Assembly (NCBI GenBank): GCA_963828705.1
Contig: CAWHGA010000032.1
Coordinates: 7,058 to 71,057, forward strand
Direction of reading: 5' to 3'
Source: an uncultured delta proteobacterium
Lineage (GTDB): Bacteria > Desulfobacterota > Syntrophobacteria > Syntrophobacterales > Syntrophobacteraceae
Length of the DNA: 64,000 nt
This document shows positions 24,967 to 43,257 of this stretch, piece after piece; within the stretch, counting starts at the first letter, position 1; every line of letters starts with the position of its first letter. The notes beneath the pieces are model-generated. The model was not told the DNA's origin. It saw only the letters and a list, made by a program, of their open reading frames with translations, and did not search any database. A program made the position numbers and the translations under genes.

Positions 24967-25014
24967 GACAACCCTGCGCAATCATGGAACGACCAAAGAT
25001 TGGGGATGGTTTTT

Positions 25015-25347
25015 ATGAAATACTGGCGAGTGCCTCTGGATGTCGATGAGGTTCTGGTTTCTCGCGGGATCGTGCACATTGTCGAGGAACGCTGCAAAGG
25101 GTGTGGCTACTGTATTGCCTACTGCCCGCGGGATGTGTTGGAACTGTCCAACCGCTTCAACAGTAAAGGGTATCACCCTCCTGCCGTTAAGAAACCGGAC
25201 GATTGCGTCAATTGTCATTACTGCGAAATCATCTGTCCGGATTTCGCCATCTTTTCGGTGGAAACACCACCGGCATCGCAAGCCGGCGCCGGCGGTTTGA
25301 TTGCTGGCCACCCTTGGGGCGGCGACCGCGGGAAAGCTTTGTTCTGA
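25015..25347 (+). CDS. 2-oxoacid:ferredoxin oxidoreductase delta subunit (2x[4Fe-4S] ferredoxin, KorD-like)
   Basis: CKGCGYCIAYCP and CVNCHYCEIICP. First gene of the four-gene set. Confidence 0.8.
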   Translation: MKYWRVPLDVDEVLVSRGIVHIVEERCKGCGYCIAYCPRDVLELSNRFNSKGYHPPAVKKPDDCVNCHYCEIICPDFAIFSVETPPASQAGAGGLIAGHPWGGDRGKALF

Positions 25348-25508
25348 GGCCTCAGTTTCTGCGACGGCCATATAGCCGGTGCGGCGGCAAGCGTCGGCCC
25401 GGTCCCGGCGGTGGATACGGCCCGGTCGAGGTTGCCGATGGGAATGGAGTGCTTTTCTTGCGTGATTCCAGGTGATCTTTTTCGGTCCTGGCGGAGTGAA
25501 AGGTTCGT

Positions 25509-26654
25509 ATGAAACCAGCAGTTCTTACCGGAGAACATTTCATCACCGGGGATGAGGCCTGCGCTGAAGGCGCATTGGCGGCCGGATGTCGTTTCTTCGG
25601 TGGCTATCCCATCACGCCGGCGACTGAAATTGCTGAACACATGGCGGCACGTCTCCCCGATGTGGGCGGAACCTTCATCCAGATGGAGGACGAAATCGCA
25701 GCCATGGCTGCGGTTTTGGGAGCGTCCTGTGCCGGGGTCAAGAGTATGACCGCAACGTCGGGACCCGGTTTCAGTCTGATGATGGAAAACCTTGGGCTGG
25801 GGATCTGCACCGAAACCCCCTGCGTGGTGGTCAATGTCCAGCGTGCCGGGCCATCCACCGGTTTGCCCACGCTGGGGGCTCAGGGCGACATGATGCAGGC
25901 GCGCTGGGGATCGCATGGCCACTACGAAATCATCGCTCTGGCTCCGGCATCGCCGCAGGAGATCTTTTATCAGACCATTCTGGCGTTCAACCTCAGTGAG
26001 GCCTACCGGACCCCGGTGCTGATCATGGCCGATGAAGTGGTGGGGCATCTCAGCGAACGAGTGGTCATTCCCGAGGCTGAAGCCATCAGGACGGTTTCCC
26101 GACCCCGGGCCAAGGGCCGCAAGGATCGTTTCAAACCCTTTCAGGCAGGTCCCAACGGTGTGGCGCCCATGGCCAATGCTGGCGATGGCTATGCGGTCCA
26201 TATTACCGGGCTGACCCACGACGAACGCGGCTATCCGGCCATGTCGGCGGAGGCCCATGTCGAGATGCTGGAACGGCTCACCGGGAAAATCCGGCGCAAT
26301 CTCCATGATATCATCCATACCGAGCGGTACCGTCTCGACGATGCCGACATTGCCATCGTTTCTTATGGGGTTTCGTCGCGAAGCAGCCTGGCGGCGGTGG
26401 ACGAAGCTCGCGATATGGGGATCAAGGTTGGGTTGCTGCGGCTCATTACTGTCTGGCCGTTTCCGGAACAACAAGTCCGAGCCTTGGCTGAGCGTGTGCG
26501 CGGCTTGGTGACGGTGGAAATCAACCTGGGCCAGATCCATCTGGAAGTGGAGCGCTGCGCGGCCGGCAAAGCTCCGGCCTATCTGGTGGGCCATGCGGGC
26601 GGCGCGGTGATTTCTCCCGACCAGATTATAGAGACCCTAAAAGGGATTGGGTGA
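25509..26654 (+). CDS. 2-oxoacid:ferredoxin oxidoreductase alpha subunit (KorA-like)
   Basis: Motifs GDEACAEGALAAGCRFFGGYPITPATEI, MEDEIAAMAAVLGAS and TATSGPGFSLM. Confidence 0.9.
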   Translation: MKPAVLTGEHFITGDEACAEGALAAGCRFFGGYPITPATEIAEHMAARLPDVGGTFIQMEDEIAAMAAVLGASCAGVKSMTATSGPGFSLMMENLGLGICTETPCVVVNVQRAGPSTGLPTLGAQGDMMQARWGSHGHYEIIALAPASPQEIFYQTILAFNLSEAYRTPVLIMADEVVGHLSERVVIPEAEAIRTVSRPRAKGRKDRFKPFQAGPNGVAPMANAGDGYAVHITGLTHDERGYPAMSAEAHVEMLERLTGKIRRNLHDIIHTERYRLDDADIAIVSYGVSSRSSLAAVDEARDMGIKVGLLRLITVWPFPEQQVRALAERVRGLVTVEINLGQIHLEVERCAAGKAPAYLVGHAGGAVISPDQIIETLKGIG

Positions 26655-26837
26655 TGTCCCACAAGGCTCGAAGTGATCGGGAGGGCGGAAACCCTCCCCT
26701 ACGTGTTACGCAACACAACCCAAATGCAGGGGTGCTGCCTCTAAGAGCCGCCCAAAAGAATTGTCCCCGCTGCCTCAGACTCGTCGAGGACGGGTTTGAG
26801 CGGAGAATCTGGTATTAGCGGTGGTATGGGAGGATTC

Positions 26838-27692
26838 ATGGAAAAGACCAAGGGGCGAGTAGAACATCCGCTTGATCGGCTGCTCCGAACCGATCGCATT
26901 CCGCACATCTGGTGCCCGGGGTGCGGGATCGGCACGGCGTTTTCGGCGACCCTGGTGGCCATGCAAAACGCCGGGATCGACTTGCAGAAGACCGTCATGG
27001 TTTCCGGGATCGGCTGTTCCGGCCGCGGTGCCGGGTACGTCAAGCTGGATTCCTATCATACCACTCATGGGCGGGCCATCCCTTTCGCCACTGGCATGAA
27101 ACTCGGCAATCCCGAACTCAACGTGGTGGTGTTCAGCGGCGACGGTGATCTGTTTGCCATCGGCGGCAACCATTTCATTCATGCTGCGCGCCGCAACATC
27201 GACCTCACCGTGATCTGCGTCAACAACCTGAACTACGGCATGACCGGTGGGCAGGTGGCGGCCACCACTCCCCACATGGCCAAGACCACCACGACGCCTC
27301 GCGGCAATCACGAACAGCCCTTCAGTCTGCCACTGCTGGCCTTCGCTTCCGGGGCCACCTACGTGGCGCGTTGGACCATGCTGCACACCCGGGACCTCAC
27401 CAAGAGCGTCGAAGAAGCCCTGCAGCGCCGCGGTTTTTCCTTCATCGAGGTGTTGGCGCCCTGTCCCACGGGCTATGGACGCCGCAACAAGGAGAAGCCC
27501 CTCGATAGCCTCAAGCTCTATCAGGAACGCACCATCATCCGTAATGGTGCTCATCCCACCGAGGTGACCCTGGATTTCGAGCATGGCATCACCCTGGGCA
27601 ACTTTATCGATATCGAACGGCCTACCTGCATCGAGTCCTACGACCGCACCTGCCGTCCCTATCCAGTTTTGGAGGAAAGGAAGGCGTCATGA
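26838..27692 (+). CDS. 2-oxoacid:ferredoxin oxidoreductase beta subunit (TPP-binding, KorB-like)
   Basis: Motifs WCPGCGIG, GIGCSGR and GDGDLFAIGGNHFIHAARRN. ATG at 26838 after GGGAGG. Confidence 0.9.
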   Translation: MEKTKGRVEHPLDRLLRTDRIPHIWCPGCGIGTAFSATLVAMQNAGIDLQKTVMVSGIGCSGRGAGYVKLDSYHTTHGRAIPFATGMKLGNPELNVVVFSGDGDLFAIGGNHFIHAARRNIDLTVICVNNLNYGMTGGQVAATTPHMAKTTTTPRGNHEQPFSLPLLAFASGATYVARWTMLHTRDLTKSVEEALQRRGFSFIEVLAPCPTGYGRRNKEKPLDSLKLYQERTIIRNGAHPTEVTLDFEHGITLGNFIDIERPTCIESYDRTCRPYPVLEERKAS

Positions 27693-28315
27693 TGACACTC
27701 GCGACGGTGTCGGCAACCACGACAGCCGGCTTGCGCCGGGAAATCATCTTCACCGGTTTTGGCGGGCAGGGCATTGTGCTGGCCGGGCGCATTGTGGGCG
27801 AAGCCGCCAGCCTGGGTGATCACCGGGAAAGTACTCTGACTCAGTCCTATGGCCCGGAAGCCCGCGGCGGTGCCTGCAGTGCTCATGTGATCATAGCCGA
27901 CGGCACTATCCACTACCCCTATGTGCGCCGGCCCGACATCCTGGTGTGCATGTCCCAGGGGGGCTACGACAAATTCGGTGACCTGCTTAAGGACAACGGC
28001 ATTCTCCTCACCGATGAAGACCTGGTAGCGTCGGTGAACCCTTCGGCAGGCACTCAGTTCTTTCCGATTCCCGCAACCCGTATGGCTGAGGAACAGGGCC
28101 GCAAAATGATGGCCAACATCGTCATGGTGGGGTTCTTTACTGCGGTTACCGGCGTCCTGTCCATCGAATCGGCACGCGCAGCAGTGGCCGCGGCGGTGCC
28201 CAAGAATACCATCGACATGAATCTGAACGCTTTCACCAAGGGCCACGACTACGGGCTGGCTGTTCTCAAGGGGCGGATGAAGAAAGCGGAAGGCAAAAAA
28301 GGAGCCCGCGGATGA
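27689..28315 (+). CDS. 2-oxoacid:ferredoxin oxidoreductase gamma subunit (KorC-like)
   Basis: Motifs GFGGQGIVLAGRIVGEAA and SYGPEARGGA. The start overlaps the korB-like stop. Confidence 0.9.
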   Translation: MMTLATVSATTTAGLRREIIFTGFGGQGIVLAGRIVGEAASLGDHRESTLTQSYGPEARGGACSAHVIIADGTIHYPYVRRPDILVCMSQGGYDKFGDLLKDNGILLTDEDLVASVNPSAGTQFFPIPATRMAEEQGRKMMANIVMVGFFTAVTGVLSIESARAAVAAAVPKNTIDMNLNAFTKGHDYGLAVLKGRMKKAEGKKGARG

Positions 28316-31300
28316 AGACGCCCAAGGAACGCCTCTATCGAGTGTTGGTGCTGGGTGCCACCCCGGCTGGTATCGCTGCCACCAACAAGCTGGGGGAACT
28401 TGGCATCCCGGTGACGCTGGTCGATCCCGAAGCCGATCTCAATGCCAAACTGGCGCGTGAGGAATGGCGCCTGAGTTCGGGTGTGACACTGAACTATGCA
28501 CTGCGGCCGGGGTTGCTCCGAATCCTGCGCAACCGCAGCATCCGCACGGTGATGCCCGGTGAGCTGCGTTCCCTGAAGCACAGCACCCAGGGTTTTGCCG
28601 CCCGTCTCAAAGTCCCGCCCGGTTATGTGGACCCCGAACGCTGCACCCTCTGCGGTCGTTGCCAGACCGTTTGCCCGGCGATTACCGCCGATGGCTCTCG
28701 GGCGATCCATCTGAACGGACGCCAGGCTCTGCCCGGTCGGGCGATTCTGGACAAGCGCCAGCAGCCGCTCTGTCAGGCCAACTGCCCCCTGGGTGTCAAC
28801 GCTCAGGCCTATCTGGCCCTGAGCCGCCAGGGTTTATTTGCCGAAGCTCTGGAAGTGGTCCGCCGCGACAACGTGCTGCCGGGGATCTGCGGGCGAATCT
28901 GCACCCATCCGTGTGAAACCGCCTGCCGCCGTGGGGAGCTCGATGAGCCCCTGGCGATTCGGGATATCAAGCGGTTTTTAGCCGATTTTGAATTGACTCA
29001 AGAGAGCCCGGCTGAAAGCGCCGGTACCGGGCAGCGACCTCTGACCGGAACGGTCCCTTCCCCATTGGGGCGCCGTGCCGTCGAGAAGGCCGCCGTCGCC
29101 GTGATCGGATCTGGTCCGGCCGGATTGGCTGCGGCGTCTGATCTGGCGCGGTTCGGTTACGATGTGACGGTCATCGAGAAGGAAGCCGAGCTGGGCGGGA
29201 TGCTTCGCTACGGCATTGGTCCCTACCGGCTGCCGCGCGCTATCCTGGATCGCGAAATCGCTGCCATCGGCGCTTTGGGCGTGGCTTTTCAGACTTCGGT
29301 GTCGTTGGACCTGCAAAATGACCTGGCTGAACTTGGCAAACGTTATGCCGCCATCGTTGTCGCCACCGGCACCTGGAAAGACCGGCGCCTTGGAGTCCCC
29401 GGCGAAGACCTTGACGGTGTCGAAGGCGGTGTCGCTTTTCTTGCTCGCCTGTATCGCGGGGAAGTACTTGAACTCAAGGAGAAGGTCGCGGTCATCGGCG
29501 ACGGCAATGCCGCCTATGATTTGGCGCGGGCGCTGGCGAGGATTGGCGCTGACGTAACCATCGTCTCTTGGTTTCCGGAAGAACTGATTCCGGCTGATCC
29601 TGAAGAAGTGGTGGCGGCCCGCGAGGAAGGCATTGCGCTTATCGACAGTGCCCAGGTGGTCGGTTTTGTCGGTGACGGTGGGCGGCTGAGCCGCTTGCGG
29701 TGCGTCCCGACCCAACCCGGGAAGCCGGATGCCCAGGGGATTCCCTGGCCCGTGCCAGTGGCCGGTGGTGAACCCTTCGAACTTGGCCTTCGATCGGGCT
29801 TTCGTGGCCATCGGCCAGGTGGGCAATGCCGCGGTCCTCGCCTCCCCGGATGGACTACAGGTTACCCCGCGCGGTTTTATCGCCGTCGATGACGGCCTGC
29901 GCACCGGGGTTTCCGGCGTCTATGCCGCCGGGGATGCGGTTACCGGGCCGTCTTCGGTGGTGTGGGCCATGGCTTCCGGACGGCAGGCGGCTGGTGCCGT
30001 GCATCGCCAGCTGAGCGGCGAAGACCTGCCGCCGGGTTTGACCAGCCGCCCCGGCGAGCGCGATTTTTGCGCTATTCCGGCCGATCTGCCGTCGGTCGCG
30101 CGCACACACATGCCGGAACGCCAGGCAGCAACCCGCTGCGCGGGTTTCGCTGAAGTGGCCCTGGGGTTGACCGAAACCCAGGTGTTGGCGGAAAGTGCCC
30201 GTTGCCTGCAGTGTGGGGTTTGTTCCGAGTGCCTCCAGTGCCTGGATGCCTGTGGAACGGTGGCGGCCATCCGGCACGACGATCGTGAGACGGAACTGGT
30301 TGAACAGGCGGGGGTGGTGATCGTCGCCGATCCGGCGCTGACCCTGGGGATCAGGGGCGATGACGTGATCCGCGCCTACAGCACCAAGGCCGCCCGAGAC
30401 GACGCCCATGCCATGATGCTGCGGGGGTTTGCCGCCGCGGCCGAAGCCATGCACTTGCTGGGCGGCAGTTCCCAGCGGCTTAAGGGGCACGGACTGGTTT
30501 TCGCCCCGCCCGACCCGCAGCTCACCGATGAACTCCGCCTGGGGGTGTTTGTCTGTCGCTGCAATGACTCGTTTGGCTGGGCTGGGGAACTGGATGATTA
30601 CCTGAGCGGGCTTCGCGCCCGTCCCGAAGTCCTGGTGGCCGACACCGTGATGTCTGCCTGCACACCCGACGGCACTGCCGCCATGGTCCGTACCATCCGC
30701 GAAAAGAACCTGAGCCGGGTGGTTTTGGCGTCCTGCGTGTGTTGCCCGCTGGATTTTGTCTGCACGGCCTGCACTGATCAGCGCAGTCGGCTAAAAGACG
30801 CACTCTTCAACGGCACCGGCATCCCTCGCGCCATGGTGGAAACCTGCAACGTGCGAGGTGAAGTGCTGCGCTGGCTGGAGGAGGATGAAGCGTTTGCGGT
30901 GGAACGTTTCACCGGGCTGCTGGACCGTTCCATCAACCGTGCGCAGTCGCTCAAGACGCTGCCGGCCCCGGCGCGGCCCTATAACTTTGCCACTGCGGTC
31001 ATCGGGGTTTCGGAAGCGGCCGTCAAGAGCGCTCTGACACTGGCCGATGCCGGTATGGAGGTGTTCTTGTTCGGCACCCCCGACCAGCCTCTGGAAGAGA
31101 CCCTGGTTCATGCCAACATCCGCAGCTTTGACGGGTCGTCGGTCAAGGGGCTGCGTGGTACGGTGGGAAACTTCCAGGTGGTGGTGGCAATGGACGGGGT
31201 TGAGCAGACCATTCAGGTGGGGGCGGTGATCCTCGGCGAACAGTCCCGGCGCCGCATCCCGTATTTGCCCCAAGCCGGCCTGCCGCCGCGTCTGGTGGAA

Positions 31301-31717
31301 TCCTCCATGCAACAGAAGGGAGTGACCGGAATTCCGTTTTTCTATCCGGGTGCTACTTCCATTCCCGGATTGTTCCTGGCCAACCCGCCGGGTATCCAGG
31401 TGTCGCAACGGGTCAAGGGGGCGGCGGCGGCGATTCTGGTGGCCACCGTCATGCCGCGGAAGCCTCGGCAGAATAAGGGCTATACCGTGGTGGTCAGCGA
31501 GGCGCAATGCCGGGGCTGTGGCCGGTGCATCCAGGCCTGTCCCTACCAGGCCGTGTTCTTCCGCCGCAACGCCGTGGGCGGTATGACTTCAGTGGTGGAT
31601 GAAGCGCTCTGCAAAGGCTGTGGCAACTGTATATCGGTTTGTCCGAGCAATGCGGCGGATAGTCCCTATCGCGATCAGAACTACCTGGAACAAATGATCG
31701 AAGAGATACTCGCTTAG
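28312..31717 (+). CDS. Large multidomain flavo-iron-sulfur oxidoreductase (GltD-like NAD(P)H module fused to an HdrA-like/ferredoxin module; HdrL-type); frame broken once (+1) near 29783-29790
   Basis: Rossmann motif VLVLGATPAGIAA. GltD-like motifs CQANCPLGVNAQAY, CTHPCETACRRG, VAVIGSGPAGLAAASDL and GVYAAGDAV. The C-terminus has CRGCGRCIQACP and CKGCGNCISVCP. ORFs 28312..29892 and 29729..31717 join at ...GEPFEL/AFDRAFVAIGQ. Confidence 0.75.
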
Positions 31718-31789: not shown

Positions 31790-32338
31790 ATGGACAACCT
31801 CAAGATCGTCGTATTCTTGTGCAACTGGGGGCCGCACGCCGCCTTCCAGACGCTTCAGGACACCTGTTGTGCCATCCCGCGGGAAGTGCGAATGGTACGC
31901 ATCCCCTGCACGGGGCGGATCAGCAAGTCGCTGCTGTTCAAGGCTTTTGAAATGGGGGCCGACGGCGTCGCTCTGATCGGCTGCCAAGAAGGCACCTGCC
32001 GCTACGGCAGCGGCACCGACAACGCCACTCACAACGTCGAACCCACGCGCGGCATTCTGCAGATGCTGGGGATGGGTAAGGAGCGGCTGCGTTGGGTAAC
32101 GTTCCTGCCTGAAGACACTGCCGGGCTGCTGAGCTTTTTGCAGGATTTTCGAAAAGATGTGCAGACTCTGGGGAAGAACCCGGCGGTGCCGGCGATACGG
32201 ACAGCGACAGCGGGGAGCGAATCGCCGCAGGAGATACCCCGCCTTGGCGATGGACCCGACGGGGACGGCCGCCATGGCATTTCACCGTCCCGTCGCCCCC
32301 ACGCCCTCGCAGCCTGGCGCCCTCGCGGCTCTCGATGA
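31790..32338 (+). CDS. MvhD-like (methyl-viologen-reducing hydrogenase delta subunit family) protein
   Basis: VVFLCNWGPH...IPCTGRIS...GADGVALIGCQEGTCRY. The 3' end overlaps the next ORF, so the end is uncertain. Confidence 0.75.
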   Translation: MDNLKIVVFLCNWGPHAAFQTLQDTCCAIPREVRMVRIPCTGRISKSLLFKAFEMGADGVALIGCQEGTCRYGSGTDNATHNVEPTRGILQMLGMGKERLRWVTFLPEDTAGLLSFLQDFRKDVQTLGKNPAVPAIRTATAGSESPQEIPRLGDGPDGDGRHGISPSRRPHALAAWRPRGSR

Positions 32339-33497
32339 GCCCACCCGGAGACTTTTGAGCGCCCACGACATTTACGCTTGCCAGGACTGCGGCAAATGTT
32401 CTTCGGCCTGTCCCATCACCCTGGTGGGCAAGCCGTTCTCGCCCCGGGCTATGGCCGGGAGGATTATTGCCGGCGGAGTGTCCGATCCGTTGGTGGATGC
32501 CGACATCTGGTCGTGCCTTACGTGCGGTCTGTGCCATGATCGTTGTCCATCGGCGATCGATTTCCCGGAGTTTATCCGGGAACTGCGGGCGTTGGAATGT
32601 TCCGGCGGGAGCAGTGCGCATGAAGCCCACGGCGGCTTCTTCCAATCGCTGATGCGGACCATGACTTCGCCGGATCTTCCCGTCCGGCATTGGGACTGGC
32701 TTCCCGAGGATGTCCGCACCGATCCGCAAAGCAAGATGCTGTTCTTTGGTGGCTGCGCCCCCTACTTTGACATCTTTTTTCGACAGCACCTCGGGGTCCA
32801 GACCAGTGATATCCTGGTGGACAGTCTGCGGTTGCTCAACTTTTTCGACATCACACCGGCGCTGCTTCCCGACGAACGCTGCTGCGGCCACGACCTGCTG
32901 TGGTCCGGGGACCGGGAGAATTTCCGGAAGCTGGCGCGACTCAACGTCGAAGCCATTGCCGATCTGGGCGTGGAACAAGTGGTCACCGCCTGCCCCGAAT
33001 GTTTCCGAACCCTCGGGCACGACTACCGGGAGCTGGGTCTGGAATTGCCTTTCGGCGTGACCCATCTGTATGAACTCCTGGAACGCGAAATCGACAAAGG
33101 CGCCATTGCCTTTGAGCGTCTCGATCGGCGCCTCACCTTCCAGGACCCGTGCCGCTTGAGTCGTGTGGGGAAGACGGCGGGGGGCGGTGCCGAACTGCCG
33201 CGAAAGCTCCTCCAGCGGCTACAGCCCAAGGCCTATCGGGAAATGGCCGACAGCGGCGTGTCGGCCCTGTGCTGTGGCAATTGCGCCTGGACCGGCTGCG
33301 ATGCCTACAGCAAGGCGCTCCAGGTCAAACGGCTGCGACAGGCACGGGAAACCGGCAGTGACCTCTTGGTGACCGCCTGCCCTAAATGCCAGATCCATCT
33401 GCGTTGTGCCATGGAAGATCCCTTCTGCGGGGACGAGATTCGAATGGAGATGCAGGACCTCGCTACGGTCCTGGCCCGAACGATTCACTGGAAGTGA
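32274..33497 (+). CDS. HdrC/HdrB-like fusion (2x[4Fe-4S] and two CCG cysteine-rich domains)
   Basis: CQDCGKCSSACP and CLTCGLCHDRCP are HdrC-like. ERCCGHD and ALCCGNCAW are CCG motifs and HdrB-like. The start (32250 or 32274) is uncertain. Confidence 0.8.
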   Translation: MAFHRPVAPTPSQPGALAALDEPTRRLLSAHDIYACQDCGKCSSACPITLVGKPFSPRAMAGRIIAGGVSDPLVDADIWSCLTCGLCHDRCPSAIDFPEFIRELRALECSGGSSAHEAHGGFFQSLMRTMTSPDLPVRHWDWLPEDVRTDPQSKMLFFGGCAPYFDIFFRQHLGVQTSDILVDSLRLLNFFDITPALLPDERCCGHDLLWSGDRENFRKLARLNVEAIADLGVEQVVTACPECFRTLGHDYRELGLELPFGVTHLYELLEREIDKGAIAFERLDRRLTFQDPCRLSRVGKTAGGGAELPRKLLQRLQPKAYREMADSGVSALCCGNCAWTGCDAYSKALQVKRLRQARETGSDLLVTACPKCQIHLRCAMEDPFCGDEIRMEMQDLATVLARTIHWK

Positions 33498-33523: not shown

Positions 33524-35911
33524 ATGGGAAGTTCTGAGCACTTGACGGCGGACGGGACGCGCATTGGCGTTTATGTGTGCCACTGCGGCCACAACATCGC
33601 CAAAACCGTGGACTGTTCGCAAGTGGCCGCCGGCGCCGCCGGTTTGGAGGACGTAGTGGTGGCCCGGGATGTCCCCTATGCCTGTTCAGGACCCGGCCAA
33701 AACAGCATCAAGGAAGACATTGCCGCCAACCAGTTGGACCGGGTGGTGGTGGTGGCGTGTTCACCGCGACTGCATGAACCCACCTTCCGTCAGATGCTGC
33801 AGGGGGCGGGACTCAACCCCTATCTCCTGGAAATGGCCAACATCCGGGAGCACTGCAGTTGGGTGCACATGAACGAACCGCAAGAGGCAACCGCCAAGGC
33901 GGCCGATCTGACCCGCATGGCGGTGGCCCGGGTACGGCAGCTTAGGCCGCTCACTGGCGAGCGCCTGGCGCTGACCAAGCGCACCCTGGTGATCGGTGGC
34001 GGGGTGGCCGGCATTCAGGCGGCCCTGGACCTGGCCGACAACGGCTACGATGTGGTGCTGATCGAAAGGAAACCTTCCATTGGCGGCACCATGGCACAGC
34101 TTGATAAGACCTTTCCCACCATGGACTGCTCCATCTGAATTCTGGGGCCGAAGATGACGGATGTCGGTCGACATCCCCGGATCAAGCTCTACACGCTGAG
34201 CGAAGTGGTGGACGTTAAGGGTCAGGTGGGCAATTTTGACGTCAAGATCCGCAAAAAAGCCCGTTACGTGGACGAAAAGGAATGCACGGCCTGCGGCGAA
34301 TGTTCCAAGGTCTGCCCGGTGGTGCGCCCCGATGAATTCAACCTCGGGCTGTCGTCGCGTAAGGCCATCTTTTCGCCGTTCCCACAGGCGGTGCCGTCGG
34401 CCTATGTGCTCAATGCCAACGAATGCCTCGGCCACAACCCGGCCGTGTGCGCCAAGTGCGTGGAAGTCTGCGAGCGTGGCTGCATCAACTTCCACATGTC
34501 TGATGAAGAGATCGTCGAACGGGTGGGGAGCATCGTGGTGGCTACCGGGTTAGAACCCTACGACCCCACGGCCATGGACGAATACGGTTACACCAGGTTT
34601 GAAAACGTGGTGACCAGCCTGGAATTCGAACGGTTGGTCAATGCCGGCGGTCCCAGCAAAGGGGAGGTGATCCGGCCGTCGGACCGCAAGCGGCCCCGTT
34701 CCATCGGCTTTATCCAGTGCGTCGGTTCGCGCGCGGCGCACAAGGGTCATGCTTATTGTTCCAACGTTTGCTGCATGAACACCGTGAAAAGCACTCTGGT
34801 GCTTAAGGAAAACTATCCGGACATGGAAGTCCGGGTGTTCTACATCGACATGCGGGCTTTTGGGAAGGGTTTCGAAGATCTCTACAAACGCAGCCGGCGG
34901 CTCGGGGTGCATTACGTGCGAGGGCTTCCGGGGACGGTGGAGCAAAAACCCGACGGGGGCCTTCGGGTGAGTGTGGAAAACACCGCCAGCGGCGTCATCG
35001 AGACCTATGACCTGGATATGCTGGTGCTGGCCATCGGGGTGGAACCAGCCAAGAGCACCCAGAAACTCCAGGAAATGCTGGGGTTGCAGCTGACTTCCGA
35101 TGGGTTCTACCTGGAAGCCCATCCCAAGCTGCAGCCGGTGGATGCGGCCACGCGGGGGATCTTTTTTGCGGGCTGCGCGGAAAGCCCCAAGGACATCAAG
35201 GAAAGCGTGACCCAGGCGTCCGCGGCGGCAGCCCGCGCCATCCGGTTGATGCACCGGGGCGAAATCCTGACCGAACCGATCACCTCGGAAGTGATCGCCG
35301 AACACTGCAAATCCTGCGGCAAATGCGCCGAAGTGTGCCCCTACAATGCCATCACCGTGGATGTGAAGAAAAAGACCGCGGCCGTGGTCAATACCGCTGC
35401 CTGCGCCGGATGTGGGACCTGCGCCGCGGAATGCCCCTTTGGCGCCATCACCATGAACCACTTCACCGACGTCCAGATCCTGGAGCAGGTGGATGAGTTG
35501 CTGGCGGAATCCCCGCAGGAAAAAATCCTGGGGTTTGCCTGCAACTGGTGCAGCTATGCCGGAGCCGATTACGCCGGGGTTTCACGCCTGCAGTACCCGC
35601 CCAATGTGCGCCTCATCCGCACCATGTGTTCCGGGCGGGTGGACGAGGACTTCATCTGGCACGCCTTCGCCAAAGGGGCTCCGGTGGTGCTGGTGAGCGG
35701 CTGTCACATCGGCGATTGCCACTACATCAACGCCAACCACTGGACCGAAAAGCGGGTCAAAAAGGTGCACAAGAAGATGGCTAAACTGGGTATCCGGCCG
35801 GAGCGGCTGCAACTGGAATGGATCAGCGCCGCCGAAGGGATTCGCTTCGCCAACATCATGGCCCGCATCGAAAAGCTGCGGCAGACTGTCACCTCCGGAA
35901 GAAATCGCTGA
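33524..35911 (+). CDS. hdrA: Heterodisulfide reductase subunit A with in-frame UGA (selenocysteine) at 34136-34138 and a C-terminal MvhD-like domain
   Basis: ORFs 33524..34138 and 34154..35911 are in the same frame. Read-through gives DKTFPTMDCSI-U-ILGPKMTDVGRHP, which aligns with the conserved HdrA D-C-S-x-C-I-L-x-P-K motif. Other motifs are GGGVAGIQAALDLA, CTACGECSKVCP, CKSCGKCAEVCP and CAGCGTCAAECP. The tail is MvhD-like (FACNWCSYAGAD...SGCHIGDCHY). Confidence 0.85.
34159..34176 (+). promoter_or_regulatory. SECIS-like hairpin (7-bp stem, GGUC tetraloop) downstream of the hdrA UGA
   Basis: GGAUGUC-GGUC-GACAUCC, with the loop starting 27 nt after the UGA. The loop sequence is the same as the apical GGUC loop of the E. 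coli fdhF SECIS, as I remember it. Confidence 0.6.
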
Positions 35912-36060
35912 AACCATTCGTATTCTCAGCAATGGCCAGCAGGCAGATGAATAGCGTGGTGGGCCGGGAGGACGGCTGGCAGCAGGCCGCCCCCTCCCGC
36001 TTCCTGCCAAAACGCTACTTGTTTGGGTTTGCATTTTTCGTTCGGCATAATCAACAGACC

Positions 36061-36108
36061 CACCACCAAGGCATCAAGACGCAAAGGATTCCAAGTGCCT
36101 TGGTGGTG
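36061..36108. repeat. Perfect 13-bp inverted repeat CACCACCAAGGCA ... TGCCTTGGTGGTG (22-nt spacer)
   Basis: Read directly. It lies between the hdrA 3' end and the TA island. No T-run follows. Confidence 0.6.
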
Positions 36109-36226
36109 ACTTCGCAAAACAAGATCTCATTCTCATCGAAGACGACTCAACTGCTTCCACTATCCGCAATCCGCCACCTTGGTTCCTGAACGTGTGACAG
36201 TCTCCGGTCGAGCCAGTCATTAGTGC

Positions 36227-36255
36227 TTGACATGGCGTACGGCATGCCGTACCAT
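36227..36255 (+). promoter_or_regulatory. yefM-yoeB promoter with overlapping 16-bp palindromic operator GTACGGCATGCCGTAC
   Basis: TTGACA (36227-36232). The palindrome spans 36237-36252. The -10-like TACCAT is at 36250-36255. GTAC half-sites are reminiscent of known YefM operators. Confidence 0.5.
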
Positions 36256-36287
36256 CTTGAGACACAACCAGAAGGGGATATTCTGCC

Positions 36288-36530
36288 ATGGCTACATTCT
36301 CGGCTACAGAAGCACGGGCGAAGCTATATCGACTGATCGATGAGGCCGCTTCTTCCCACGAACCCATCCTCATTACTGGCAAACGCAGCAATGCGATCCT
36401 TATCTCGGAGGACGACTGGCGCTCTATTCAGGAGACCCTTCACCTGCTGTCGGTTCCCGGTATGCGGGATTCCATCATCGATGGGCTCAACACACCTGTT
36501 ACCGAGTGCTCCGAAAAACTGGACTGGTGA
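36288..36530 (+). CDS. yefM: Phd/YefM-family antitoxin
   Basis: MATFSATEARAKLYRLIDEAASSHEPILITGKRSNAILISEDDWRSIQETLHLLS is a canonical YefM sequence. Confidence 0.9.
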   Translation: MATFSATEARAKLYRLIDEAASSHEPILITGKRSNAILISEDDWRSIQETLHLLSVPGMRDSIIDGLNTPVTECSEKLDW

Positions 36531-36796
36531 TGGTGAGGTGGCGTGTTGTTTTCACCAAACAGGCCCAGAAGGATGCCAGGAAGATCTCGAGTTCTGGGCT
36601 CAAGCCCAAGGTCGCGCAGCATCTCTTACTTCTTCGTGACAACCCCTATCAAGTCCCCCCAGTCTACGAGAAACTCGTGGGCGACCTCACTGGAGCTTAT
36701 TCCCGCCGCATCAACATCCAGCATCGGCTGGTCTATCAAGTCCTGGATGACGAACGGGTGGTCAAGATCATTCGGATGTGGACTCATTACGAGTGA
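36530..36796 (+). CDS. yoeB: Txe/YoeB-family toxin (RelE fold)
   Basis: ...LLLRDNPYQVPPVYEKLVGDLTGAYSRRINIQHRLVYQV...VKIIRMWTHYE. The start overlaps the yefM stop. Confidence 0.9.
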   Translation: MVRWRVVFTKQAQKDARKISSSGLKPKVAQHLLLLRDNPYQVPPVYEKLVGDLTGAYSRRINIQHRLVYQVLDDERVVKIIRMWTHYE

Positions 36797-36963
36797 GAAC
36801 TCTGGTCTTCCGCGAGCAATGCTTTGCCATCGTATCAAAGCGTGGTGGCAGTATCGCCAGCAGGGCAGTGCATTGAGAGTTGAGGCGGCTTGGCGAGGCC
36901 ACTCAGTTGGCTCGGAAGGACATTGACCAAGACCGGCTCATTCGCTTGGGAGTCGGCACCATA

Positions 36964-36975
36964 ACGGCATGCCGT
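36964..36975. repeat. Second, orphan copy of the operator core ACGGCATGCCGT
   Basis: The identical 12-bp palindrome occurs about 170 bp downstream of yoeB. Confidence 0.5.
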
Positions 36976-37111
36976 ATTTGGGGTCCTCTGCACACAACCT
37001 TCTGCTGATGTATACTTATCAAGGATTAAAAGCTACATTTCTGAATGACTGAAAATTCGGGCTGAGCAGTGTCTCAAGCTCATCTCGATACTCCGTGGCG
37101 TGCCCTCGCGT

Positions 37112-37432
37112 TCAGGCGGGCAATTCATCTTGCAAAAGATGGCGCGACCGGAAAGTAACGTTCACTTCAACGTCCTCATCAAGTTTTCCGAGTATCGTAA
37201 TCATGCGATCAAGCGTAAAGCGTCCAAGCTTCGCGTTGCGAATGCGCGAAAACTCCGAATGCGCTACGCCCGTTAGTCTTTCGGCCTCGCGTGTTGATAG
37301 ACCACGCTCGTCAAGCGTGCGTATGATCTTCGCTGCAAGAATGGCGCGAGCCTGTTCAACACCGGCGTTAACGCGGCCAAAGTCACGAAAAGCATTGCCA
37401 CTGCCGCGAATGAGTTCAAGGTCGTTGTTCAT
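37112..37432 (-). CDS. XRE-family HTH antitoxin (HigA-like)
   Basis: GSGNAFRDFG...ILAAKIIRTLDERGLSTREAERLTGVAHSEFSRIRNAKLGRFTLDRMITIL is typical of antitoxins paired with Gp49/HigB-like toxins. Confidence 0.75.
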   Translation of the reverse strand: MNNDLELIRGSGNAFRDFGRVNAGVEQARAILAAKIIRTLDERGLSTREAERLTGVAHSEFSRIRNAKLGRFTLDRMITILGKLDEDVEVNVTFRSRHLLQDELPA

Positions 37433-37545
37433 TGTAAAGCCTCCCTTAATCGTTTCAGGCGGTCGCGGATAGGGTCAACCTCCATCTTGGGTGTCTTAAT
37501 TCCAGCTTTGGATTTCTTCTGAAAGGCGTGAATAACCCAAGGGGG
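37429..37545 (-). pseudogene. C-terminal stump of a Gp49/HigB (RelE-superfamily) toxin
   Basis: Hand translation of the minus strand gives PPWVIHAFQKKSKAGIKTPKMEVDPIRDRLKRLREALQ*, preceded by an in-frame TAG. The stop overlaps the antitoxin ATG (ATGA). Only about 38 codons remain. Confidence 0.55.
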
Positions 37546-37778
37546 CTATCCAGTTCGCTCAAGTTGCCTCAGGATTCGACCATGACAACGCCAGTTGTTC
37601 AAGGAAGGAAGGTTGCCAGCTGATGTGAAGCGGATGGAACACCCGCCCATTGCAAGCTCTTTGGCCACCATGCCTGGAAGAGATAGAATCCACGGTCATT
37701 TGCACAGCAGCATCGGTCGTCGAGCTTATCGTGTTTAAACGAAGGTATTCGCCGTGAGCGAGCGAACGTGATCACTTT

Positions 37779-38150
37779 CTAGCTTATGGCTGACACAGCA
37801 CATGAACTTGAGCGAAATGGATAGCCCCTTAACCCAAATATCAGTGCCGATCTTAACAGCGTAGATGACCCGGAAAGCGTCCCCTCGATGCCGGAGCGCA
37901 ATTTCGAACACGCCACCAGAAGATAGCCGTTGCCAAGAAGCTTTGCGCTGTCACCGTCAAGGTCCTGGCTTGTCTGGACGCCAGGCGGATCGCTAGCCTC
38001 GATGGTTGGTTTCTGAAGAGCTGGGTTCTGATCGAGATAGTTCTCGAAGTTTTCGGTCACGCCGATAGGGGCCGCTTCAATTTTTCCTCTGGTCCTCTGA
38101 TTTCTCCCGCAAGACATCATCAAAATCCTTGACAGGAGAAATACTTTCAC
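37779..38150 (-). CDS. Hypothetical ORF (weak)
   Basis: ORF-track entry only. No recognisable motifs, and it lies in a lower-GC region. Confidence 0.25.
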   Translation of the reverse strand: MKVFLLSRILMMSCGRNQRTRGKIEAAPIGVTENFENYLDQNPALQKPTIEASDPPGVQTSQDLDGDSAKLLGNGYLLVACSKLRSGIEGTLSGSSTLLRSALIFGLRGYPFRSSSCAVSAIS

Positions 38151-38157
38151 CTAATAT
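38129..38157 (+). promoter_or_regulatory. Sigma70-like promoter upstream of the 38273 ORF/lexA pair
   Basis: TTGACA (38129-38134), 17-nt spacer, TAATAT (38152-38157). Confidence 0.45.
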
Positions 38158-38272
38158 TCACCTTACTTATGAAGTGGACTAACCGCAGCACCACGCCAGA
38201 ACGCCGGTAGTTATAAACCGCCTAACCAAAGGCTTTCCGGCATGATCAGAGGATTCTTACTGGAGGATAAAG

Positions 38273-38941
38273 ATGGGCGCCAACCTTTACGCATTGAGAA
38301 AAAAGGCTGTGATGGTACTCAGTTCGGACGGCAACCGGGAAACGGTCCACTTGCTCCAGCTTTCAGTTGAGCACGCCCTCTCACAGGATTCTCAGAGGAT
38401 GGTCGACGTTGCGTTAAGACATGCCAGTAAGGAATGGGAGGACTGCAAAGAGCTCCCCAGGCTTGTCGTTCTGGTGGAAGGCGATGGAGTACCTCGGCCT
38501 GGCTCTCCGATTTTTGGATGGCATTTTTGCAAACGTGGATACTGCTTTGATCATGAACTGCCGGCTCCTTTGGGATATCTGGGCGACAGGGAACTGGGGG
38601 GATATCTCTTTCGTACAATACAAGAGCAAGCGCACTTGAACGATCTTGACACGGCACGGCATATAGATGAAGGCAGGGCCAAGGTTTACAAGGATTTTTG
38701 GAAAGGTAAGCTGTTTGAGTCCGGAGAGGAATTCTTGAGATCCCGAGAGCGACATTTGCGGTCACAAGGCAAGGAGAGAAGGCCTCAAAGAGAGTCCCAG
38801 CCTTTCCTGCCCCCAAGGCTCGCAAAGATTTTTACCCTGATCAGGTTCATAGAGAGAAAAGGCAACAGTGCCTCACCCGCAGATCTGCACTTCTTGGGAT
38901 GTTTAAAAGACAAGGCATCTCAGCTCGGCCATCTTCAGTAG
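38273..38941 (+). CDS. Hypothetical protein (222 aa) directly upstream of lexA
   Basis: A clean ORF with no family recognised. It is co-directional with lexA, separated by a 75-nt gap. Confidence 0.5.
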   Translation: MGANLYALRKKAVMVLSSDGNRETVHLLQLSVEHALSQDSQRMVDVALRHASKEWEDCKELPRLVVLVEGDGVPRPGSPIFGWHFCKRGYCFDHELPAPLGYLGDRELGGYLFRTIQEQAHLNDLDTARHIDEGRAKVYKDFWKGKLFESGEEFLRSRERHLRSQGKERRPQRESQPFLPPRLAKIFTLIRFIERKGNSASPADLHFLGCLKDKASQLGHLQ

Positions 38942-39015
38942 ACGCAAAAGATGTTCTGGTTGGTTTTCCCCATGACGAGAAGTAGGATGTTGCTCTATTG
39001 GAAAAAGGAGGCTGT

Positions 39016-39615
39016 ATGGGGCTCACACCGGCACAGGAAAAGGTTTACCAGTTTGTCCGGAACTTCATTCTCCTGCATGGATATGCACCCTCTTACGAGG
39101 AAATCCGCACTCATCTGGGGTTTCGATCCTTAAACGCCGTCTACAAGCACCTAAGAGCAATAGAAGAGCGCGGATTCCTCAAAATCCCTGGGAGTAATCG
39201 AAAACGTGCTCTCGAGCTTATGCCTTTACACACTGGGGCCGCATCCATTCCATTCCTGGGAATAGTTGCAGCCGGAACTCCCATTGAGGCAGTTGAGATC
39301 CCGGAGTCCGTCGAAGTGCCAGAGAGTTTCCTCGGAAATGGCAATAACTTTGCCCTGCGGGTCCGGGGAGATTCCATGATCGAGGAAGGAATCCGCGAGG
39401 GAGATATCCTGATCATCGCCAAGAAATCCCATGCTGAGAACGGCCAAACCGTTGTGGCTCTGGTTCGAGGCGAGGCAACCGTAAAGAAATTCTATCACCA
39501 GGGTGGGGAGGTTGAACTGAGGCCTGCAAACAGCCAAATGCAACCTATCCGAGCAGCTGGAACCGATGTTGAGATTGTTGGAACAGTAGTCGGCCTGTTG
39601 CGCCACTATCGCTAG
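39016..39615 (+). CDS. lexA: LexA repressor (wHTH and S24 autopeptidase)
   Basis: LTPAQEKVYQFVRNFILLHGYAPSYEEIRTHLGFRSLNAVYKHLRAIEERGFL. The Ser/Lys dyad context is RVRGDSMIEEGI and GEATVKKF. SD AAAGGAGG upstream of ATG 39016. Confidence 0.9.
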   Translation: MGLTPAQEKVYQFVRNFILLHGYAPSYEEIRTHLGFRSLNAVYKHLRAIEERGFLKIPGSNRKRALELMPLHTGAASIPFLGIVAAGTPIEAVEIPESVEVPESFLGNGNNFALRVRGDSMIEEGIREGDILIIAKKSHAENGQTVVALVRGEATVKKFYHQGGEVELRPANSQMQPIRAAGTDVEIVGTVVGLLRHYR

Positions 39616-39853
39616 ACGATCTTTCGGAGTTCTTAAGGACGGAACTGGCTGTTCTGTGCAGACAGAATACCATGCAGGGCGGACCCGCACTGAAACCAGT
39701 GACCACACAGATTCAATCCTTGCGCCTCGCTACGCTCGCCTTTAGTCGCCTCCAGCGTACTCGGTTGTGAACAGCGGTCTCTCATCGGGAAAGCCTTTTT
39801 CATGAATGCTACTTCCCCCACCCTCGACACTGATTTAACACAGGGAAGGCGTC

Positions 39854-40214
39854 TCAGTCACATTGGCACAGGGGGGTGGCCGTCGTCGTGGAATTCATTG
39901 ACCCGCCGCGAGTCGTGAAACAGGGCGAACAACGCGACCACATCGCGGTCGGCCCCGTTGGTCTCAGCCACACGTAATCCGTTCTACCAATCACCCGCGC
40001 CCAGTGGAACAGCTCCGTGGTCGCCCCGAACGGGCAGAGTGTAGCCGCGGAGGATCTCGACCATGATGGCAGCCATGTCATGCAAGCGATTCACCTCCAC
40101 CGCGTAACGCTGGGCATAAGCGGCACCCAACCACGCCGCCGATGCGCCCAAAGAAATGCTGCCAAATTCCCCAGTGTGGTTGGGTGTCTGCTTCCAATTG
40201 CTAGATCCAATCAC
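39854..40214 (-). pseudogene. Decayed fragment of an HD-like phosphohydrolase-family gene (several frame and stop disruptions)
   Basis: Minus-strand pieces ...ELFHWARVI.. and ..NGLRVAETNGADRDVVALFALFHDSRRVNEFHDDGH.. lie in different frames and are interrupted by TAG. Family assignment is from memory only. Confidence 0.3.
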
Positions 40215-40636
40215 GCGCAGCCTTCTGGTGCCTTGATCACTGGCTTGTCATTCGTTGGATCGGCAGAAGGTTCCCCAAAGAAATGCACTGCCTGGTATAC
40301 CCACCACGCCCTCAGTGAACTCATTCCATCTTCCTCACAGATCTTCTGAAGCAACCGATCCGCCACTTCTCGATAGGTTCCTTCGTCAAGAAGACGTTCA
40401 CGCATGAGCTGATAAAGTGCATCGTGGACCAGAGATCCCCGCATGAAGTTTAGGGTGTCAATCGTCGGTCCAGAGGGACCGTCCCATGCGTAGCCCTTCT
40501 TGATGGTCAGAATCCCGTCCGTTGTCAGCGCTAGATAATCTGTGTCAATTGGAATCGGCGGCTTTATACTGATTCGCAGGGTGTAGCTTTCTTTGAGCTG
40601 GTATTTATAGCCAGCCCTATACGCGATGCATTCCAT
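40211..40636 (-). CDS. DUF1353-domain protein (phage-associated family)
   Basis: The GYAWDGPSGPTIDT... and SLVHDALYQL motifs. It lies downstream of the tail-fibre-like gene on the same strand. Confidence 0.7.
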   Translation of the reverse strand: MECIAYRAGYKYQLKESYTLRISIKPPIPIDTDYLALTTDGILTIKKGYAWDGPSGPTIDTLNFMRGSLVHDALYQLMRERLLDEGTYREVADRLLQKICEEDGMSSLRAWWVYQAVHFFGEPSADPTNDKPVIKAPEGCA

Positions 40637-43243: not shown

Positions 43244-43257
43244 ATGGGAGGAGTCCG

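Follow-up and report, generated by a model that had tools for sequence, protein, structure and literature searches.

An in-frame UGA in an HdrA2-type gene of an uncultured Syntrophobacteraceae bacterium: a probable selenocysteine codon followed by a conserved bacterial SECIS-type hairpin

The locus considered here raises the question of whether an hdrA reading frame that is interrupted by a TGA represents one gene, two genes or a broken one. In the window (the whole 64,000-nucleotide stretch of DNA analysed), an ORF of 204 aa at 33524..34138 is closed by the TGA at 34136-34138, and an ORF of 585 aa at 34154..35911 follows it in the same frame; the coordinates thus bear out the earlier note, which had described an hdrA split at this TGA with both parts in one frame. 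Translation across the TGA gives ...MDCSI*ILGPKMTDVGRHP..., from which the junction can indeed be read as DCSI-U-ILGPK. The interpretation we favor, at a probability of roughly 0.93, is that positions 33524-35911 constitute one gene for a 795-residue HdrA2-type selenoprotein, the UGA being read as selenocysteine (Sec) by way of a downstream hairpin. The features on which the argument turns are collected in Table 1.

Table 1. Coordinates of the hdrA2 gene, its internal features and the neighboring cluster genes (positions in the window)
Feature	Position	Strand	Remarks
2-Oxoacid:ferredoxin oxidoreductase genes (delta, alpha, beta, gamma), cluster head	25000..28315	+	NCBIfam alpha, beta, gamma
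HdrL-like gene: GltD/NfnB-type NAD(P)H oxidoreductase fused to HdrA-like part	28312..31717	+	NCBIfam
Stand-alone MvhD-like gene	31790..32200	+	NCBIfam VhuD, HdrA2 C-terminal region; same place in related loci
HdrD/GlpC/TfrB-like Fe-S protein (HdrC- + HdrB-like)	32250..33497 (5' end provisional)	+	NCBIfam TfrB, LdhH, GlpC, HdrC
hdrA2, very probable selenoprotein gene	33524..35911	+	795 codons; UGA-Sec = codon 205; C-terminal MvhD/FlpD domain
C-S-I-U motif, Cys202 to Sec205	34127..34138	+	CxxC/U of thioredoxin-reductase-like domain
UGA-Sec, residue 205	34136..34138	+	HdrA counterparts: Cys197 (M. thermolithotrophicus), Sec197 (M. maripaludis)
Internal AUG, Met211	34154..34156	+	Taken by ORF finders and gene callers as start of 585-aa gene
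Bacterial SECIS-type hairpin	34159..34176	+	7-bp stem 34159-34165/34170-34176; apical loop GGUC 34166-34169

With Cys written in place of Sec, the read-through protein scores 1198.8 bits against the NCBIfam HdrA2 model (NF040770; curated cut-off 1100), in a single unbroken match that runs from residue 13 to residue 790 and takes in model positions 1-772 of 777, and this places it within HdrA2; the halves on their own reach 319.5 and 845.9 bits, both below the cut-off. The alignment of 5ODC HdrA (E 1e-237; residues 12-660) is continuous over the junction and retains all of the Cys motifs, and 5ODC MvhD aligns at residues 665-780. Pfam domains FlpD, Fer4 and Pyr_redox_2 are found, and the complete HdrA2 domain set is present: an Fe-S domain at the N-terminus, an FAD domain resembling thioredoxin reductase, ferredoxin domains (inserted and C-terminal) and MvhD as a fusion. 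The predicted product is a subunit that would contain flavin and Fe-S clusters and bifurcate electrons within a heterodisulfide-reductase-like complex. The two ORFs flanking the TGA have GC3 values of 0.76 and 0.77, and among the 34 TGA-joined ORF pairs listed in the window only the hdrA pair has coding character on both sides.

Within a gap-free block (query 115-217 against 5ODC_A 107-209), the UGA falls on Cys197. The motif D-C-S-x-C-I-L-x-P-K, which had been quoted as typical of HdrA proteins, can be found in solved structures (NDCSICILAPK in 5ODC, LDCSMCILAPK in 8RVU), and Cys occupies the UGA position in all 26 full-length homologues. The C-S-I-U motif is kept in 80/80 TGA sequences (81 were analysed, namely the window plus L001-L080), and the Cys-type locus L074 likewise has DCSI. 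With a UGA on a conserved Cys, Cys-containing homologues and other UGA-containing orthologues, the gene belongs with the HdrA selenoproteins, a family that is, as had been asserted, already known: it is established in bacteria (PMC1794560), and the M. maripaludis enzyme carries Sec197 (PMC13518236).

The hairpin proposed as the recoding signal, GGATGTC/GGTC/GACATCC, is present at 34159-34176, beginning exactly 20 nt past the TGA as had been described, and its nucleotides serve as the codons for T-D-V-G-R-H-P. Under the model of bacterial SECIS elements in PMC13188914 (Fig. 2A), the apical loop measures 3-9 nt, the upper stem measures 4-16 bp and the minimum free energy is no higher than -7.5 kcal/mol; the first two loop positions hold a G, and the base after it is usually G or U. 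Here the loop is the 4-nt GGUC, with GG at loop positions 1-2, the stem has 7 bp, the 27 nt between UGA and loop (34139-34165) lie within the distance allowed by that model, and the 18-nt hairpin folded alone gives -9.4 kcal/mol. The single-sequence fold of 60 nt does not differ significantly from shuffles (z = -0.48). Rfam yielded no SECIS-type match, only chance matches, either at the gathering threshold over the whole window or permissively over 34050-34300. The window contains a single copy of the 16-nt core of the hairpin, where chance would give 0.02. A lower stem, UCUGGGG/CCCCGGA, appears in both the MFE and the centroid folds; it was rejected, as the RNAalifold consensus retains the apical hairpin alone.

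Scanning of two contig collections provided 83 loci, the best 80 from GTDB species representatives and 3 from metagenomes, and a TGA stands at the codon-205 position in 79 of the former and 2 of the latter (81/83 in total). The TGA-type GTDB loci have 68-85% protein identity, and TGA loci are distributed over Syntrophobacterales, Desulfobacterales, Desulfobulbales and Desulfatiglandales. Every one of the 81 TGA-type loci has the hairpin, with the 16-nt core at the same offset and one mismatch in L063. Across 80 TGA sequences, the window included, the loop is invariably GGTC, stem pair 6-13 covaries (UA 36, CG 35, UG 9, CA 0), and third-position entropy is 0-0.10 bit over four hairpin codons versus 0.5-1.9 bit at flanking synonymous codons; because the hairpin lies within the reading frame and its 18 nt double as T-D-V-G-R-H-P, these synonymous positions are frozen. 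In an alignment of 25 sequences, 97.1% of cells are paired, a value reached by none of 500 shuffles, and partners slid out of register give 23-58%. The metagenome scan for Cys-type controls (query P0023) returned 3 loci, 2 of them TGA-type, and Cys-type controls were fetched singly. A GGUC-loop hairpin was found in 0/8 Cys-type loci, seven of which encode the identical TDVGRHP peptide with varied codons.

Contigs from sediment metagenomes and metatranscriptomes also span the UGA and the hairpin; their variants, at 34141, 34144 and 34147, are in wobble positions, and none lies within the TGA or the hairpin. Zero raw reads of run X21 mapped, and the best sequencing run contains 47% of sampled words. 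Protein identity peaks at 92%, a value reached with metagenome fragments, the exact sequence being absent among the matches listed; in the database the nearest relatives belong to the Syntrophobacteraceae, one of them being Desulforhabdus with 86% identity.

Gene callers would have translation stop at the UGA (34136) and start again at the AUG at 34154, to give two polypeptides. This AUG lies a mere 15 nt past the UGA, relatives are annotated as entries of 593-606 aa, and termination at UGA under selenium limitation is a known bacterial side reaction. We nonetheless regard two polypeptides as very improbable. Such a split would sever the FAD-binding thioredoxin-reductase domain and lose the HdrA-invariant Cys/Sec, neither half meets the HdrA2 cut-off, and all 26 full-length homologues noted above are single chains with Cys at the site. 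Met211 itself is conserved internally in Cys-type HdrA and in archaeal HdrA (as in "PKMVDV"), and the codons upstream of it are free at wobble sites, so that no conserved ribosome-binding site is maintained before it. On this comparison, Met211 is best taken as a conserved internal HdrA residue rather than a start codon.

The public record reflects the alternative nevertheless. Among the best 120 database matches, 94 are below full length, their commonest N-termini being MTD(V/A)GRHP, and the relatives' entries of 593-606 aa, which are C-terminal fragments, bear the product names "hypothetical protein" or "hydrogenase iron-sulfur subunit". Because the closest relatives are split into two ORFs in public records, the practical value of the present finding is in annotation repair: split hdrA annotations throughout the Thermodesulfobacteriota could be mended by searching for the 16-nt core GATGYCGGTCGRCATC with its start 21 nt past a TGA in a DCSI context, a marker both simple and specific.

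It might also be supposed that near-cognate or reassigned decoding places an amino acid other than Sec, such as Cys, Trp or Gly, at the UGA, and that the hairpin has another purpose, such as a pause site or regulatory element. In favor of this idea, the Sec machinery is known to insert Cys at UGA when selenium is scarce. On the other hand, UGA is the main stop codon of the window, where 14 of the 20 confident genes terminate with it, so that recoding in hdrA must be local and not a genome-wide reassignment; the hairpin fits all four SelB-type criteria and has the GGUC loop of fdhF; and the homologous residue has been identified experimentally as Sec197 in M. maripaludis (PMC13518236). We consider non-Sec read-through extremely unlikely. 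A nonsense mutation or miscalled base in a former TGC/TGT, leaving a dead or mis-assembled gene, draws some support from other broken genes in the window (hdrL, an ABC transporter and PBP4), which indicate that assembly or strain is imperfect, but is effectively refuted by conservation, the TGA being present in 81/83 loci of other species and always accompanied by the hairpin, which Cys-type genes lack, with both halves high in GC3 and at 68-85% protein identity to relatives and no variant at 34136-34138 in metagenome contigs, and its probability is negligible. The proposal of a Sec-HdrA in preference to two genes or a pseudogene is thus upheld by the UGA on Cys197, the HdrA2 score, the conserved TGA and a hairpin found with TGA only.

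The broken genes merit a word of their own. Frameshifts affect at least three other window genes, among them hdrL near 29782, the ABC transporter gene near 55513 and PBP4, and could reflect either decay of the cluster in this strain or assembly errors; the positions in doubt are 29782, about 55513 and about 17740-17790. The hdrL lesion is a one-base frameshift; relatives have a single ORF of 1121-1137 aa, and contigs from runs X1 and X2 (95-99% alike) are without one base at 29782. A second Sec site in the relatives' HdrL was considered and rejected, the apparent stops arising from cross-matching of the HdrA-like part to the hdrA gene.

How would the UGA be decoded? Following the established bacterial mechanism, the hairpin at UGA205 would be expected to bind SelB with Sec-tRNA(Sec), with insertion of Sec in place of termination; the strict pairing of hairpin and TGA among the loci, together with the covariation, lends this indirect support. 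None of selA, selB, selD or tRNA-Sec occurs within the 64-kb window (ARAGORN, tRNA-Phe only; NCBIfam on 40 ORFs), and the flanks of related loci, 0.99 Mb in all, contained no tRNA-Sec. Syntrophobacteraceae relatives are selenoprotein-rich (PMC1794560), and by analogy with them we assume that this organism decodes Sec.

The residue at issue, Cys/Sec197, is one whose part in HdrA electron bifurcation is debated, as a cluster ligand or as a selenenylsulfide relay. Cys197 of HdrA ligates the N-terminal cluster of the partner subunit (PMC9012536); for Sec197 of the M. maripaludis protein, an apparent Se-S bond is seen and a Cys-Sec selenenylsulfide has been proposed (PMC13518236). Carried over from this literature on archaeal HdrA, Sec205, as the final residue of C-S-I-U in the thioredoxin-reductase-like FAD domain, would, depending on conformational state, either ligate the [4Fe-4S] cluster of its partner's N-terminal domain or pair with the neighboring Cys as a disulfide/selenenylsulfide, the latter form being proposed to relay a low-potential electron between FAD and the partner [4Fe-4S].

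The gene belongs to a conserved cluster whose order is 2-oxoacid:ferredoxin oxidoreductase (POR), hdrL, mvhD, hdrD-like and hdrA; synteny of the genes for POR beta and gamma extends to 46-56 related loci, the delta subunit being assigned from ORF translation alone, and the HdrD-like gene, directly upstream of hdrA2, is syntenic in 75/80 related loci, its product being the probable disulfide-reducing partner. The arrangement corresponds to the HdrAL/POR cluster of S. fumaroxidans, Sfum_0012-0018 (PMC5947623). From this arrangement, electron bifurcation or confurcation may connect ferredoxin, NAD(P)H and the disulfide of a protein, for instance DsrC. CoM-S-S-CoB is not expected to be the substrate in a bacterium of the sulfate-reducer type.

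A further idea, which we put forward tentatively and think on balance unlikely, is that Sec205 may act on the co-encoded HdrL, besides or instead of serving a homodimer, by supplying its N-terminal Fe-S domain with the missing ligand or with a selenenylsulfide relay. In archaea, complementarity between Cys197 and the N-terminal domain has been described where HdrA paralogues are in tandem or fused (PMC9012536), a pattern that an HdrA2-HdrL pairing would fit. Were this so, one would have an asymmetric HdrA2-HdrL bifurcating core wired to the 2-oxoacid:ferredoxin oxidoreductase, its low-potential branch tuned by selenium, and the retention of Sec in 81/83 loci would reflect a functional need at the HdrA2-HdrL interface.

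It remains to set the gene and its hairpin beside known systems. The label "fdhF-like" given to the hairpin in the earlier note survives in part. The apical loop of E. coli fdhF is GGUC, as was stated and as can be read in MG1655 fdhF after codon 140, and the hdrA loop is identical to it; the stem differs, however, and lacks the bulged U, and the offset of the loop is 27 rather than 18 nt. Both hairpins are in frame and immediately 3' of the UGA, with SelB the presumed reader. Strictly defined, the fdhF type has a bulged U in the upper stem, a feature that E. coli SelB requires, and 11 nt from UGA to the minimal helix; the hdrA element, with a perfect 7-bp helix 20 nt from the UGA and no conserved lower helix, falls outside that type.

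Archaeal HdrA (M. thermolithotrophicus, PDB 5ODC; Methanococcus maripaludis) shares the fold and the cofactor-binding residues, and Sec occupies the homologous place in the CxxU of M. maripaludis. Archaeal SECIS elements sit in the untranslated region, not in frame. Their structure is unlike that of the bacterial ones (PMC13188914). MvhD is fused to HdrA here, unlike in these archaeal proteins, and the partners are POR, HdrL and an HdrD-like protein, as opposed to HdrBC with the Mvh/Vhu hydrogenase. HdrA2 of the M. acetivorans type (the HdrA-MvhD fusion of NF040770) has the same domain architecture; the present protein differs in having Sec, not Cys, at position 205 and a bacterial genomic context.

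The nearest precedent is deltaproteobacterial. Sec-HdrA is known in Syntrophobacter fumaroxidans, with 7 such genes, in Syntrophus aciditrophicus and in Desulfotalea psychrophila (Zhang et al., 2006; PMC1794560), and the family, the position of the Sec/Cys in DCSxC/U and the in-frame SECIS 3' of the UGA are the same as here. Deltaproteobacterial Sec-HdrA has thus been documented since 2006, and the gene in the window reveals no new principle. The 2006 paper placed its emphasis on a glpC-hdrA-frhD-frhG-frhA hydrogenase operon (PMC1794560); what differs in the present case is another, uncultured sediment organism, an HdrA-MvhD fusion and a POR-linked bacterial cluster in which Sec is kept almost without exception.

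The hdrA junction reads ...ATG GAC TGC TCC ATC TGA ATT CTG GGG CCG AAG ATG ACG GAT GTC GGT CGA CAT CCC..., and straight translation gives one 795-codon frame with this TGA as its sole internal stop (...FPTMDCSI*ILGPKMTDVGRHP...). The sequence and an ORF check bear out the earlier note, which had placed the codon between two ORFs of the same frame. Against the family model for HdrA2, the HdrA-MvhD fusion (NCBIfam NF040770, cut-off 1100 bits), the N-terminal ORF scores 319.5 bits over model positions 1-192 and the C-terminal ORF 845.9 bits over positions 199-772, both below the cut-off, whereas the read-through protein covers positions 1-772 as one stretch with 1198.8 bits. Because only the joined protein passes and the halves fail, the TGA cuts one domain of one HdrA2 member. 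Pfam finds FAD/NAD Rossmann signatures upstream of the TGA, and ferredoxin domains with a C-terminal FlpD (MvhD) domain downstream. In the PDB, residues 12-660 of the read-through protein align without a break with HdrA of Methanothermococcus thermolithotrophicus (5ODC_A, E 1e-237), and residues 665-780 with MvhD (5ODC_D). Within a gap-free block (query 115-217, 5ODC_A 107-209), UGA codon 205 falls on Cys197 of N-D-C-S-I-C-I-L-A-P-K; read-through does restore the HdrA motif, as had been claimed.

Positions of hdrA elements and other features in the window
Feature	Position	Strand	Remarks
aroA ORF	14587-15684		first 55 model positions absent
PBP4 (D-Ala-D-Ala carboxypeptidase)	16974-18489		two overlapping ORFs, model positions 4-191 and 186-397
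hdrL-like gene	28312-31717		two overlapping ORFs, different frames, shift near 29782
HdrA-like part of HdrL	30530-31100		HdrA-type N-terminal domain
hdrA N-terminal ORF	33524..34138		204 aa; frame shared with C-terminal ORF
TGA in hdrA	34136-34138	+	direct sequence reading
hdrA C-terminal ORF	34154..35911		585 aa; frame shared with N-terminal ORF
Inverted repeat GGATGTC / GACATCC, loop GGTC	34159-34176		20 nt past TGA; from sequence
Region directly 3' of hdrA	36000-43500		G+C falls from ~0.61 to 0.49-0.57; few long ORFs
LexA repressor	38998-39615		
ORF	40856-41911	-	no NCBIfam match; one example of the unassigned ORFs 3' of hdrA
Sigma-factor-like ORF	43258-43827		by eye only
Thiazole/oxazole-modified peptide (TOMM) maturation cluster	46340-56850		leader-binding cyclodehydratase protein, YcaO/SagD-type protein, SagB dehydrogenase, then two NHLP-type bacteriocin export ABC transporters
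NHLP-bacteriocin export ABC transporter (TIGR03797)	53955-56850		two ORFs, different frames, break near 55513

Elsewhere in the window TGA is a normal stop, terminating 14 of the 20 confidently identified genes, and of 34 TGA-joined ORF pairs found by a scan only the hdrA pair has coding-like GC3 on both sides (0.76, 0.77). For these two reasons the recoding of UGA is local, as a SECIS-dependent event predicts. A GTDB scan with one genome per species gave, as its best 80 loci (68-85% identity), homologues from Syntrophobacteraceae, Desulfobacterales, Desulfobulbus, Desulfatiglandales, Desulfosoma and others. The homologous codon is TGA in 79 of these, in the identical context DKTFPTMDCSI*ILGPK, and TGC in a single locus (L074); among three additional metagenome loci, two carry TGA as well. 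Neither a nonsense mutation nor a sequencing error can account for a stop kept across bacterial orders in an otherwise conserved gene.

Among the best 120 matches from a search over 5.8 billion proteins, only 26 are full-length (780-822 aa, identity to the query no higher than 79%), and all 26 have Cys at the UGA-equivalent position. The remaining 94 are closer (83-92% identical) and less than full length (584-620 aa), and their commonest N-termini, MTD(V/A)GRHP, are what a gene caller produces on restarting at the Met five codons past a stop. For three cultured or named relatives, Desulforhabdus amnigena, Desulforhabdus sp. TSK and Syntrophobacteraceae bacterium DRH4, public records annotate the C-terminal fragment of ~599 aa only. 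Since such fragments are named 'hypothetical protein' (two, from Desulforhabdus) or 'hydrogenase iron-sulfur subunit' (one), the selenoprotein is systematically mis-annotated in relatives.

The hairpin GGAUGUC-GGUC-GACAUCC was confirmed where the earlier note had put it. By itself it is statistically ordinary (in this G+C-rich DNA, comparison with dinucleotide shuffles gives the 60-nt fold a z of -0.48, not significant), and the case for it therefore rests on cross-sequence comparison. Across 80 TGA sequences (79 loci plus the window), third positions of flanking codons show free variation where the amino acid is invariant, with entropies of 0.5-1.9 bit (Ile as ATT/ATC/ATA, Lys as AAA/AAG, Leu, and all four codons of Gly and Pro), whereas within the hairpin the values are 0.10 bit for GAT and 0 for GYC, GGT and CAT. 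All 80 have GGTC as the loop, and the sole variable stem pair covaries (U-A 36, C-G 35, U-G 9, C-A 0), its C-G form combining a Val-to-Ala change in the protein with a synonymous CGA-to-CGG. RNAalifold on 25 diverse sequences gives the hairpin as the only consensus structure; 97.1% of its cells are paired, a value reached by 0/500 shuffles, as against 23-58% with slid partners. The window contains the 16-nt core GATGYCGGTCGRCATC a single time (0.02 expected by chance), and 80 of the TGA-type loci have it exactly once, always starting 21 nt past the TGA; L063 has one mismatch to it. As judged from these alignments, the hairpin is selected as RNA.

Eight Cys-type loci served as controls (L074, L081, L084-L089). 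Seven encode T-D-V-G-R-H-P unchanged, with varying codons (GTG/GTT, GGA/GGG/GGC/GGT, CGT/CGC/CGG/CGA, CAC/CAT), and the GGUC-loop hairpin is found in none of the eight, as opposed to all 82 TGA-type sequences (81 loci and the window); the Cys-type loci fold locally to -2.8 to -5.0 kcal/mol at best, the TGA-type loci to -7.1 to -11.5 kcal/mol. Because the same peptide occurs in Cys-type loci without the hairpin, its nucleotide conservation tracks the TGA and is no by-product of protein conservation. One Cys-type locus (TGT, L081:2634-2700) carries a degenerate copy, AGATGTTGGACGACATCC, with loop GGAC and -4.8 kcal/mol; it may be what remained of a SECIS when Sec was converted to Cys, a type of change that PMC1794560 describes.

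The bacterial SECIS consensus (PMC13188914) has a loop of 3-9 nt on a stem of 4-16 bp, a G within the first two loop positions, 16-37 nt from UGA to loop and a free energy of -7.5 kcal/mol or below. The hdrA hairpin agrees on all four counts (4-nt loop, 7-bp stem, GG start, 27 nt, -9.4 kcal/mol), and from this structural match we infer that it would work like a bacterial SECIS. In E. coli MG1655 fdhF, where the UGA is codon 140, the apical loop is indeed GGUC and begins 18 nt past the UGA; 'fdhF-like' in the earlier note thus holds for the loop, but not for the hdrA spacing (9 nt longer) or for the helix, which lacks the bulged U and a conserved lower stem.

With the TGA kept across orders, the hairpin co-occurring with it and an HdrA2 score reached only when joined, the reading as a Sec-HdrA, not two genes or a pseudogene, is supported; Sec would be inserted at the UGA, SelB bound and a selenoprotein made. 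ARAGORN finds tRNA-Phe only and no tRNA-Sec in the 64-kb window, NCBIfam no selA, selB or selD among 40 window ORFs, and in 0.99 Mb flanking the related loci there is no tRNA-Sec either. By analogy with Syntrophobacter fumaroxidans, which has 31 selenoprotein genes, 7 of them HdrA (PMC1794560), lineage argues strongly for Sec decoding. The window segment also occurs in freshwater-sediment, wetland and soil metagenomes, in related strains rather than the source organism, since the best run holds only 47% of sampled words. UGA and hairpin are covered by contigs from a metatranscriptome and two DNA runs; these have variants at 34141, 34144 and 34147, the Ile, Leu and Gly wobble sites, and none in the TGA or 34159-34176, a pattern that agrees with the Sec/SECIS reading but is weak evidence for it.

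Other genes in the window are broken. In relatives hdrL is a single ORF (1121-1137 aa), and two sediment metagenomes yield contigs, 95-99% alike, with one base fewer at 29782; the shift reflects either an indel in the assembly or a frameshift specific to the strain. The TIGR03797 halves match model positions 1-244 and 244-686, a split of the kind that one A too many in ...ATCAATAGCCATC... would produce. Together with PBP4 and aroA, these cases suggest an indel-prone assembly or several pseudogenes. The region directly 3' of hdrA may be an acquired island.

The window protein belongs to the HdrA2 family and to the long-known HdrA selenoprotein family, and hdrA is thus a further member of an already known group; its practical use lies in repairing the widespread split annotations of Sec-HdrA2. 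POR-linked HdrA2 nearly always has Sec at position 197, whose part in the mechanism is debated. In the HdrA dimer, Cys197 of one HdrA is a ligand of the N-terminal [4Fe-4S] cluster of its partner (PMC9012536). In the M. maripaludis Hdr-Vhu-Fwd assembly, a 2026 cryo-EM structure, the same residue is Sec197, with density in one conformational state for a selenium-sulfur bond to the adjacent Cys, proposed as a relay between FAD and cluster A3, a role its authors call unresolved (PMC13518236). BamE of class II benzoyl-CoA reductase is described as having a similar CxxC disulfide (bioRxiv 10.64898/2026.04.10.717634). The window protein shares the CxxU motif of M. maripaludis HdrA as C202-S-I-U205.

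Its gene stands last in a cluster of 2-oxoacid:ferredoxin oxidoreductase (delta, alpha, beta, gamma), hdrL (a GltD/NfnB-type and an HdrA-like part), mvhD, hdrD/GlpC-like and hdrA2, syntenic in most of the 80 GTDB loci and corresponding to the HdrAL/POR cluster of S. fumaroxidans, Sfum_0012-0018 (PMC5947623). The natural reading would be a flavin-based bifurcating or confurcating complex joining ferredoxin, NAD(P)H and a disulfide. When the HdrA-like part of HdrL is aligned to hdrA of three GTDB loci (L007, L009, L012), the DKTFPTMDCSIU loop is deleted, and HdrL therefore lacks the Cys/Sec197 equivalent held by HdrA2, a complementarity that resembles the one reported for tandem archaeal HdrA paralogues.
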